Shown: positions 34,781 through 35,445 of the stretch, in pieces
Position numbering within the stretch: position 1 is the stretch's first letter
How the letters are laid out: every line of letters starts with the position of its first letter
NCBI GenBank assembly: GCA_964436015.1
Contig: CAYTAR010000002.1
Coordinates: 9,521 to 73,520, forward strand
From: an uncultured Candidatus Saccharibacteria bacterium
GTDB lineage: Bacteria > Patescibacteriota > Minisyncoccia > Phycocordibacterales > GCA-2401445
DNA length: 64,000 nt
Direction of reading: 5' to 3'
Translations under genes and position numbers: made by a program
The notes under the pieces: generated by a model
The model's input: the letters and a program-made list of their open reading frames with translations, nothing else
What the model was told of the DNA's origin: nothing
Database searches by the model: none

Positions 34781-34852
34781 GCCCCCGTAGTTCAATGGAT
34801 AGAACCGCGGACTTCTAAGCCGTTAATGTAAGTTCGATTCTTACCGGGGGCA
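34781..34852 (+). tRNA. tRNA-Arg (anticodon UCU)
   Basis: Acceptor GCCCCCG/CGGGGGC, D arm GTTC..GAAC, anticodon loop CTTCTAA, T arm GTAAG-TTCGATT-CTTAC. No CCA. Confidence 0.85.
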
Positions 34853-34855
34853 CAC

Positions 34856-34892
34856 GTACAAAAAACCTCACTTTTTGTGAGGTTTTTTGTAC
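34856..34892 (+). terminator. clamped terminator hairpin T1
   Basis: GTACAAAAAACCTCAC-TTTTT-GTGAGGTTTTTTGTAC (16-bp perfect stem). Confidence 0.75.
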
Positions 34893-34901
34893 ATGCTTTT
34901 T

Positions 34902-35028
34902 GTAAGAATCGAACAAGGAAGGGGTCGGGAAACCTGTCGGTTTCCCGTGGAGGAAGGCAGTGAGGGAGTCTGCGAGCGAGCGTTGGAAAACCGTGGGTTT
35001 CCAAGTGGTTCGATTCTTACCGGGGGCA
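34902..35028 (+). repeat. tRNA-flank hairpin unit A0 (third core variant)
   Basis: 5' arm GTAAGAATCGAAC is the exact reverse complement of the tRNA-Arg T loop and stem. The 3' end GTTCGATTCTTACCGGGGGCA is an exact copy of the tRNA 3' end. The core contains hairpins GGGAAACC..GGTTTCCC and GGAAAACC..GGGTTTCC. Confidence 0.8.
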
Positions 35029-35030
35029 CA

Positions 35031-35072
35031 CCCAAACAAAAACCACTCATTTCTGAGTGGTTTTTGTTTGGG
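35031..35072 (+). terminator. clamped terminator hairpin T2
   Basis: CCCAAACAAAAACCACTCA-TTTC-TGAGTGGTTTTTGTTTGGG (19-bp perfect stem). Confidence 0.75.
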
Positions 35073-35089
35073 CATGTGCAAACGGAGCG

Positions 35090-35237
35090 GTGTGCCTGCG
35101 CACACTGCGTTAAGAATCGAAAGCCGGAACATGTCGCTTTGCGACAGTGAGGCGGGGTCGAGAGTACTTTGGATTTTAGAGTGTACTCACGAATAAAATC
35201 CTTAGTAACTCGTGACCGATTCTTACCGGGGGCACAC
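35090..35237 (+). repeat. tRNA-flank hairpin unit A (type 1 core)
   Basis: GTGTGCC..TTAAGAATCG-AAAGCCGGAAC..GGCGGGGTCGAGAGTACTTTGG..CCTTAGTAACTCGTGAC-CGATTCTTACCGGGGGCACAC. The 3' end is the third exact copy of the tRNA-Arg 3' end. Confidence 0.8.
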
Positions 35238-35240
35238 GAG

Positions 35241-35286
35241 TAACACAAAAAATATCTCCCATATATGGGAGATGTTTTTTGTGTTA
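35241..35286 (+). terminator. clamped terminator hairpin T3
   Basis: TAACACAAAAAATATCTCCC-ATATAT-GGGAGATGTTTTTTGTGTTA (20-bp stem with one G-U pair). Confidence 0.75.
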
Positions 35287-35310
35287 GCAAGCAAACTGCT
35301 TTGCATGCGT

Positions 35311-35445
35311 ACTCGTGTGCCGGGCGCAGTGATGTTGCGCGGAGCGCCACGACGCGCAACCACGAGCCGGGGTCGCAAGTACTTTGCAGAATTGGAGCAA
35401 AGCGAACAATTATGCTTAGTAACTTGTGACCACATAGATTTGAGC
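35311..35445 (+). repeat. tRNA-flank hairpin unit B (type 1 core, 3' arm missing)
   Basis: The 5' end ACTCGTGTGCC is complementary to GGCACACGAGT of the preceding copy. The core has GAGCCGGGGTCGCAAGTACTTTG..GCTTAGTAACTTGTGACC, then CACATAGATTTGAGC as in unit E. It is preceded by the conserved hairpin AAGCAAACTGCTTTGC (35289-35304). Confidence 0.7.

Follow-up and report, generated by a model that had tools for sequence, protein, structure and literature searches.

In a stretch of 64,000 nucleotides from an uncultured Candidatus Saccharibacteria bacterium (GenBank assembly GCA_964436015.1, contig CAYTAR010000002.1, positions 9,521 to 73,520 of the forward strand; hereafter the window), the gene for tRNA-Arg(UCU) raises a question: why should the 3′ end of this tRNA be repeated twice more downstream of the gene, with a hairpin after each occurrence and, ahead of each extra copy, its own reverse complement? 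The answer favored here, with somewhat better than even confidence, is that the locus consists of three serially inserted, non-autonomous, protein-less cassettes standing behind one intact tRNA-Arg(UCU), the 3′ end of which has been replaced.

The repeated end of tRNA-Arg(UCU)

The 21-mer CGATTCTTACCGGGGGCACAC is present exactly three times in the 64 kb, at 34835, 35011 and 35217; no further copy with up to three mismatches was found in the window, and 100 shuffles gave no match. It spans tRNA positions 56–73 (C56 to A73, with the discriminator at 34852) plus three bases of the trailer, and the first two copies of the tRNA end have 24 nt in common. The preliminary description of the locus had placed a hairpin after each of the three copies and a reverse-complement arm before each of the two extra ones, and both observations were reproduced, with stems of 16, 19 and ~21 bp. 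The features of the locus are as follows.

34740–34769 (+): promoter-like site (TTGACC, 18 nt, TAGTAT) shortly before tRNA-Arg(UCU), the sole such site in 34600–35600
34781–34853 (+): tRNA-Arg(UCU), called by ARAGORN and Rfam (64.8 bits), with G53 at 34832, C56 at 34835 and A73 at 34852
34835–34855 (+): copy 1 of the 21-mer, tRNA positions 56–73 plus the trailer CAC
34856–34892 (+): terminator-like hairpin T1, 16 bp, with an A-run, a T-run and a GTAC clamp
34902–34914 (+): 5′ arm of unit 1, GTAAGAATCGAAC, reverse complement of tRNA positions 53–65
34915–35007 (+): core of unit 1, of a second core type named A0, the same type as in the second unit behind tRNA-Gly in genome locus L003
35008–35031 (+): copy 2 of the tRNA end, starting at G53 and 24 nt long, which serves as the 3′ arm of unit 1
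35031–35072 (+): hairpin T2, 19 bp, perfect
35090–35105 (+): small hairpin GTGTGC-CTGC-GCACAC, found by reading, with the CUGC loop of the family and a stem of tRNA-end sequence and its complement
35108–35121 (+): 5′ arm of unit 2 plus GAA, reverse complement of tRNA positions 54–67 with one mismatch
35114–35222 (+): unit 2 (A), with a type-1 three-way-junction core (P1, P2, P3); covariance model 92.4 bits, E 4e-24; fold z −6.7
35217–35237 (+): copy 3 of the 21-mer, which forms the 3′ arm of unit 2 and was probably the original tRNA end
35241–35286 (+): hairpin T3, ~21 bp
35287–35308 (+): conserved P0 hairpin GCAAGCAAA-CTGC-TTTGCATGC, common to the His locus and other genomes
35310–35321 (+): 5′ arm of unit B, TACTCGTGTGCC, reverse complement of 35231–35242, with its junction between tRNA positions 72 and 73 of copy 3
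35314–35436 (+): unit 3 (B), with a type-1 core and arms of the 3′-end type; covariance model 79.3 bits; fold z −4.7

The arm GTAAGAATCGAAC at 34902–34914 is complementary at 13 of 13 positions to 34832–34844 and equally to 35008–35020, and CGTTAAGAATCG at 35108–35119 is complementary at 11 of 12; the reverse complement sits ~95 nt upstream of each later copy of the tRNA end. Unit B had been thought to lack a 3′ arm, and here the picture had to be corrected: its arms derive from the last bases of the tRNA copy instead of from the T-loop. Its arm TACTCGTGTGCC is the exact complement of GGCACACGAGTA (35231–35242), i.e., the end of copy 3 plus 5 nt, and also closes a short helix with ACAT after GTGACC. 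Otherwise the anatomy of repeats, clamped hairpins, inverted arms and structured cores was upheld by folding and complementarity. The folding energies of T1, T2 and T3 are −24.5, −30.6 and −29.2 kcal/mol (z about −9 against shuffles); each has a G+C-containing stem followed by a T-run, as a predicted terminator does, and a terminator scan calls T1 on the plus strand and T3 on the minus strand. The T-runs of T2 and T3 are located inside the extended stem.

The layout had been taken to mean that the locus offers three alternative transcript ends, each finishing with an authentic acceptor end. This could not be maintained. Copies 2 and 3 lack a tRNA body ahead of them and therefore cannot yield a tRNA, and since the arrangement recurs behind transfer-messenger RNA (tmRNA) and behind ftsZ (see below), where a piece of coding sequence is copied, the copies look like insertion duplications.

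Units behind other genes in the window and beyond

A local BLAST of 34856–35450 against the window gave matches just downstream of tRNA-His, tRNA-Leu, tRNA-Val and tRNA-Arg(GCG), and the one architecture was also found behind tRNA-Ser and tRNA-Lys on reading those regions; all seven real tRNAs of the window bear one to four units each, and the core repeat stands behind five of the seven. The order within a unit is a hairpin, a 5′ arm reverse-complementary to its own tRNA from position 54 onward, the core, and a copy of the tRNA from position 57. For six of the seven tRNAs an exact complement of the 12-mer that starts at T54 is present 48–68 nt downstream; tRNA-Ser has this complement with two mismatches. 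At least three core types can be told apart, namely type 1 (units A and B), A0 (unit 1) and type 2 (Lys and Arg-GCG), and the first His unit shows a variant 3′ half, type b. The remaining units of the window are these.

42145–42885 (+): array of four units behind tRNA-His (42070–42144), containing a 373-bp block tandemly duplicated at 98% identity
38567–38960 (+): two type-1 units behind tRNA-Leu(GAG), at 38625–38745 and 38831–38954, with arms from the Leu T-arm
36575–37004 (−): two units behind tRNA-Val(UAC), one at 36814–36946 and a composite one at 36586–36791, from the covariance model and reading
30363–30657 (−): two type-1 units behind tRNA-Ser(UGA), at 30485–30595 and 30363–30464, from the covariance model and reading
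24103–24301 (−): unit behind tRNA-Arg(GCG), in which a core of the third type, type 2, is joined to the 3′ end of type 1, CTTAGTAACTCGTGACC
19345–19496 (−): type-2 unit behind tRNA-Lys(UUU), with the arms GGGTAGGAATCGAA and GATTCCTA

A covariance model built from 32 units gave nine strong matches in the window, every one behind a tRNA and none elsewhere. The orientation of the units tracks that of the target gene on both strands, and the GC skew of the window rises throughout. The genes dnaA and then dnaN occupy 3169–5852 (+), with yidC nearby, which together with the cumulative GC skew places the window start probably near the replication origin.

Three smaller observations concern the same regions. 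The duplication in the His array (42137–42868, +) amounts to 2.0 copies, holds two units and a terminator, and has partial copies of the tRNA 3′ end at its edges. A hammerhead or other small ribozyme was considered for CTGACGAG...GAAA in the first His unit and rejected, this being a plain hairpin for which Rfam gives no ribozyme match. The tRNA-Pyl(CUA) that ARAGORN calls at 57968–58043 (−) lies inside an open reading frame (ORF) of 561 aa, has neither an Rfam tRNA match nor a unit, and is probably a false call.

Beyond the window, the 17-mer CTTAGTAAYTYGTGACC, which is the 3′ motif of type 1, occurs at no fewer than 116 genome loci, nearly all of them in Paceibacterota, Yonath-, Nomura- and Saccharibacteria and relatives; the few matches outside Patescibacteria are chance matches within coding sequence. 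At most of the genome loci (denoted below by L numbers) the motif ends 125–170 nt past a tRNA on the same strand. When 761 kb of these loci were scanned with the covariance model at E < 1e-6, 129 units were found, 105 of them downstream of a same-strand tRNA and 71 of those within 100 nt. Among the 158 tRNAs with enough flanking sequence, 98 have a unit within 600 nt, a fraction biased upwards by the use of the motif to select the loci. Of 172 tRNAs, 70 have the complement of the T-loop 12-mer downstream and 6 have it upstream, and a direct copy of the 12-mer was found downstream of 41 and upstream of none.

The targets are not confined to tRNAs. Genes for tmRNA (ssrA) also carry units, with arms from the tmRNA T-arm (L056 3040–3912, L013 1210–1967, L074 1920–2498), and in three genomes, one of them a Saccharibacterium, a type-1 unit stands right after the stop codon of ftsZ (Pfam Tubulin and FtsZ_C):

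L032, 4294–4423: unit behind ftsZ
L096, 5109–5235: unit behind ftsZ
L014, 2165–2270: unit behind ftsZ

In the ftsZ units the 5′ arm is the complement of each genome's own G-A-V-P codons, so that in L032 the arm GGGTACCGCC pairs with GGCGGTACCC and in L096 AGCAGGCACTGCC pairs with GGCAGTGCCTGCT, and a decayed copy of the ftsZ 3′ end stands after GTGACC. The codons concerned belong to the conserved C-terminal peptide W-G-A-V-P-A-F. These units represent either an ancient insertion or repeated homing to one site. As a separate observation, four type-1 units lie at L012 1737–4029, on a contig labelled Patiriisocius (Bacteroidota), which is probably a mis-binned Patescibacteria contig.

No family of Rfam 15 matches the units, either in scans of 34300–35900 and 19000–31000 at permissive E-values or in a scan of the whole window; only tRNAs, an S-adenosylmethionine (SAM) riboswitch and side matches driven by tRNAs were returned. 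The riboswitch (S-box, 64.1 bits; 28250–28349, −) lies upstream of the gene of a pyridoxal phosphate enzyme of Cys/Met metabolism (26991–28175, −). The literature searched, by motif strings and by topic alike, contained no mention of the conserved 16- and 17-mers, and the nearest topical work, a paper on tRNA introns in Patescibacteria, treats group I introns of the anticodon loop (PMC13011429). Judged from Rfam 15 and this literature, the family appears to be undescribed so far.

The folded core and its arms

The core was folded by RNAalifold as a three-way junction. The two arms make up its helix P1, P2 is a stem whose internal loop is rich in G and A and whose tip varies, and P3, likewise variable at its tip, pairs GGUCG.GAGUAC with GUA-ACUYGUGACC; single-sequence folds of units A and B give the same junction. 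In the alignment of 129 sequences, 94.7% of the paired cells can pair, as compared with 78% after shuffling and 23–40% when the partners are slid by 1–3 columns. This alignment was fitted to the covariance model and hence leans towards the structure, which is still backed by the slid controls and by the 5′ strand of P3, which had not been selected for. Changes on both sides that compensate each other occur at 18 of 23 pairs, one G-U is kept in 122 of the 129 sequences, one further pair of the core varies as a GC/GU/AU series, and among the mismatches of P1 there are 17 G-U against 5 A-C (p = 0.017). The conserved G-U, the series and the excess of G-U in P1 together identify the tRNA-sense strand as the folding strand, although sequence, including the irregularities of P3 (the conserved G-U, a 2 × 2 mismatch and a bulged A), cannot tell folded RNA from folded DNA. 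An RNA of the minus strand was rejected, since the conserved G-U would read A-C on the other strand. With a conserved fold, compensatory changes and restriction to one strand, the core has the marks of a candidate structured non-coding RNA. A different hint comes from the heptamer GCGAAGC and close variants of it, which recur at the tips of P2 and P3 in many units (e.g., at 42389–42395 and 38643–38649 of the window): as DNA, GCGAAGC forms an unusually stable mini-hairpin, and the folded form may thus be single-stranded DNA.

The fold invites the explanation that each unit is a cis-acting RNA switch or insulator, co-transcribed with the gene upstream, and that the duplication tells only how the element arose. 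The 5′ arm would pair either with the 3′ part of the gene, preventing the tRNA from folding and from being processed at its 3′ end, or with the 3′ arm, closing P1, and a ligand or protein that stabilized P1 of this aptamer-like junction would free the tRNA. Besides the strand-specific fold, the covariation and the conserved G-U, this explanation draws support from the GAA of the 5′ arm, which complements U54-U55-C56 and cannot be paired by the 3′ arm, and which is replaced by GGA where the loop reads TCC (L021, L081); from the position of the unit between gene and terminator in L075, L011 and the ftsZ loci; and from the copy itself, in which the part that forms P1 is kept and the distal part has decayed. 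It is nevertheless considered unlikely, given that strong T-run hairpins precede every unit in the window with no promoter-like site after them, that the units form arrays of two to four with different cores, that a unit was replaced between relatives at 96% identity and a site was found empty (see below), that the same core stands behind a protein-coding gene, and that no ligand or partner is known.

How the arms relate to their targets was followed in the surveyed units. The complement of the 5′ arm together with the next three bases was found within 450 nt upstream in 57 of 107 units and in none of 99 downstream controls; the arm thus spans a junction, with 3 nt on its left side and 5–16 nt on its right. 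The junction (written here with a slash) is C/G or C/A in all 57, most often TTC/R (41), followed by GGC/A (5) and GTC/A (4), and it falls between tRNA positions 56 and 57, between tRNA positions 72 and 73, or between the G-A and V codons of ftsZ. Both tRNAs with a TCC loop, in L021 and L081, are matched by an arm with GGA instead of GAA. The 5′ arm and the 3′ copy do not differ significantly in their fidelity to the tRNA (14 versus 20 mismatches in 273 positions, p = 0.38).

The suggestion that the copy of the tRNA end is not free to drift was borne out: across 43 first units, identity with the tRNA is 91–100% at positions 57–62, 60–81% at positions 63–68 and ~50% at positions 69–73. About 40% of the units have a 3′ copy without mismatches through the end of the tRNA and on into the trailer (e.g., L103, L025, L011); in the rest the copy decays distally. 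In L075 and L091 the trailer AACGTTAAG and a terminator with a CUGC loop are placed after the copy and not after the tRNA, and the same trailer and terminator come directly behind many tRNAs of those genomes.

The last point touches on a feature of many tRNAs, in L095, L044, L041, L062, L075 and L091, which share a trailer of the form (C)AAACGTTAAG or AACGTAAAG, followed by an A-run, a stem, a CUGC loop, a stem and a T-run; conservation of the loop and the trailer suggests something beyond a simple terminator. In the second unit of L003 (−), ~150 nt before the HU gene, the A0 core holds an internal copy of the T-arm, GAGTTCGAT[AGCGAAGCG]TCTCCCATCC, in which the T-loop is broken by a mini-hairpin of 9 nt; this resembles an insertion nested within a decoy copy.

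The reach of the arms also bears on the idea that the unit gives rise to a stable, trans-acting RNA, a mimic of the acceptor/T-arm minihelix that would be trimmed by RNase P and RNase Z, receive a CCA end and serve as decoy or substrate for tRNA-binding enzymes or toxins. Some arms do extend to the acceptor end and the discriminator, as in the first Leu unit (a P1 of 12 nt, with the complement of the 5′ arm continuing to ~19 nt), L053 (14 bp) and L108 (15 bp). The usual 5′ arm covers positions 54 to ~64 only, is preceded by GCGU and the P0 hairpin, and leaves no acceptor helix, and the units of the 3′-end and ftsZ types have no tRNA-like helix at all. As a general reading the minihelix was rejected because the usual 5′ arm ends at about position 64, and even in a restricted form it is the most improbable of the explanations weighed here.

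Probable insertion, turnover and known systems

Besides core and arms, a cassette brings a gene 3′ end of its own, with trailer and terminator hairpin; in this way the gene stays whole, the original end is displaced downstream, and the distal part of the displaced end decays. Three different hairpins beside an identical 21-mer are what serial insertion of independent cassettes predicts. The probable order at tRNA-Arg(UCU) can be read from the junctions. Unit B, the arm of which is complementary to GGC/ACACGAGTA where copy 3 ends and therefore has its junction at positions 72 and 73 of the then tRNA end, would have come first and brought T3. Unit A would have entered the T-loop next, between positions 56 and 57, bringing copy 2 and T2, and the A0 unit last, bringing T1 and copy 1, the present working end of the tRNA.

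The donor might have been a circular or folded single strand, in which the gene-end copy and the complementary arm would form one helix mimicking the target duplex, with the terminator hairpin at one end and the three-way junction, the conserved P3 alongside, at the other; this layout would account for the “clamped terminators”. An enzyme whose gene lies elsewhere would exchange one strand at the C/R junction, the 3-nt left complement would check the match after the exchange, and replication would follow. A single exchange and replication would give the order gene, hairpin, complement, core and displaced original end, as is seen here. Recombination involving the repeated ends and the conserved cores would subsequently enlarge the arrays and rearrange their units.

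Variation in unit number between related genomes had been anticipated, and both the number and the type of units were found to vary when homologues (84–96% identity) of the response regulator that adjoins tRNA-Gly(UCC) in L003 were compared. In L128 (96%) the flanks and the first unit match those of L003, yet the P2 of that unit is completely different, and the second unit of L128 is unrelated to that of L003, with another hairpin, a P0 hairpin and another core. In L003 the first block of hairpin plus arm, ~75 nt, is repeated exactly before the A0-type core, and L129 (93%) has a clamped terminator only, without a unit. The contigs of L130 and L131 end at tRNA position 56 or 1 nt past it, which would reflect the behaviour of the assembly graph at the left edge of the repeat. 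For the window itself, an exact look-up of the neighbouring proteins gave no matching record; the nearest relative of the flanking Na/Ca exchanger is 71% identical and lies on a contig of 1.3 kb with a different unit content, too short to be compared cleanly.

Several points weigh against serial insertion. Neither an excised circle nor a single-stranded form has been observed. The arms are target-specific, and the model offers no explanation of how both arms would be rewritten for a new target. Pfam searches of 36 of the ~60 ORFs of the window found no integrase/recombinase, transposase or reverse transcriptase, and none was enriched near units. The downstream gene in L129 differs as well, so the comparison is no clean before/after pair. 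In many genomes the unit lies between gene and terminator and is hence transcribed, with which a role at the RNA level remains compatible, and the core is near-invariant from Saccharibacteria to Paceibacterota, as an RNA useful to the host would also be.

The search for a linked enzyme covered the ORFs within 2.5 kb of the units at ~110 loci, which were clustered; no family was present at more than eight loci. The 36 window ORFs scanned are housekeeping genes (dnaA, dnaN, ruvA/B/C, polA, pilus genes, an aminoacyl-tRNA synthetase and others). A phage origin was rejected, since ten matches to the 17-mer among 2.9 million viral contigs all lack the rest of the core. Elsewhere in the window, an ORF of 2073 aa follows a protein of 646 aa with a bacterial surface Ig-like domain (50444–56665, +).

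Among known systems, the closest in outcome are the integrative elements that target tRNA and tmRNA genes and their non-autonomous derivatives, the cis-mobilizable elements (CIMEs), which enter the 3′ part of the gene including the T-loop, bring a replacement end, leave direct repeats and pile up in tandem. Here too direct repeats of the tRNA 3′ end flank the insert, which restores the tRNA end, and in L103, L025, L011 and others the copies are exact through the trailer. The units differ in that no recombinase accompanies them (they measure 110–200 nt, with no integrase near ~110 loci) and in that their core is conserved and folded, the target is also present as an inverted copy, and a coding gene, ftsZ, is among the targets, with arms re-matched to it. 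The scar of an integrated element with attL/attR ends, which the preliminary description had named as the competing possibility, comes close to what is seen, except that ordinary integrase scars would not be protein-less elements of 110–200 nt with a conserved core and target-matched arms.

That the units are nonetheless such scars, attL/attR remnants of integrase-driven islands in the manner of CIMEs with the core as a decayed island end, is thought improbable. Direct repeats of the tRNA 3′ end from the T-loop onwards and restoration of the end are the classic signature of integrase action, and in L051 (2560–4432, −) an island of 1.7 kb (DUF6671 and Zn-ribbon genes) lies between the end of tRNA-Ser and two downstream copies, so that the same site evidently also takes larger cargo. 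Random decay would not be expected to leave a fixed unit size of ~110–130 nt with compensatory changes, nor arms that are inverted copies of each target, ftsZ codons included; moreover, none of more than 100 loci has an integrase nearby, and the 2.9 million viral contigs gave no real match.

In the CTX-phage attP(+) site, the integrative mobile elements exploiting Xer (IMEX) and the attC sites of integrons, a donor hairpin of inverted, target-like segments folds in a strand-specific manner and undergoes a single-strand exchange, and tandem arrays arise in which the newest unit lies nearest the target. By analogy, one strand exchange on such a donor would reproduce the order of gene, hairpin, complement, core and copy. 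The units differ from these in that no dif or attI site and no evidence of XerCD or IntI was found here, with no intI among the scanned ORFs of the window; they have no GTTRRRY boxes of the attC kind and read GGTCGAGAGTAC...GTAACTCGTGACC instead, and it is the core sequence that is conserved and the target that varies from unit to unit.

The IS200/IS605 elements, palindrome-associated transposable elements (PATEs) and repetitive extragenic palindromic (REP)/REPIN sequences include protein-less, hairpin-rich copies that insert 3′ of a short target read by an internal guide near a hairpin, which the 3-nt left complement and the C/R rule of the units resemble. IS200/IS605 insertion duplicates no target and does not copy the right flank, whereas the units carry a duplication of ~20 nt or more, follow the orientation of the target on both replication arms, and have no TnpA, TnpB or RAYT gene near them or among the scanned window ORFs. 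With the bridge and seek RNAs of IS110/IS1111, conserved non-coding scaffolds with target-matched segments that look programmable, the units have in common the scaffold and the matched segments. They are without an adjacent DEDD recombinase, their guides lie at the ends of the fold and not in two internal loops, and their duplication is long, whereas IS110/IS1111 elements share only a 2-nt core. Group I introns, which are common in Patescibacteria tRNAs (PMC13011429), likewise pair both sides of the junction with one continuous guide (P1/P10), but the units give no RF00028 match and are too small, the tRNAs are intact, and at its start the inserted piece repeats the downstream exon. Because each of these systems shares one or two features with the units and fails a defining one, the family may constitute a new kind of element, as measured against them, Rfam 15 and the literature searched.

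The re-matching of arms leads to a further proposal, doubtful but worth entertaining, that the units are the non-coding half of a programmable insertion system, with a scaffold of RNA or single-stranded DNA. An arm of 10–16 nt would pair across a chosen C/R site and, together with the right-side copy, direct a strand exchange carried out by an enzyme elsewhere in Patescibacteria genomes or by the fold itself; a change of the arms alone would then shift the target among the tRNA T-loop, the tRNA end, tmRNA and the coding sequence of ftsZ. That the arms are matched to each target, coding sequence included, would point to targeting by base pairing, the property that made the CRISPR, TnpB and bridge-RNA systems useful.

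If serial insertion is the correct reading, ~2.8 kb of the 64-kb window (the sum of the unit coordinates) would be taken up by a single family of structured elements that encode no protein, and, despite the very small genomes of Patescibacteria, the family would be present at over half of the tRNA loci surveyed, chosen as these were by the motif. Partial tRNA ends, contigs that break at the T-loop and long “clamped terminators” would then share one cause.

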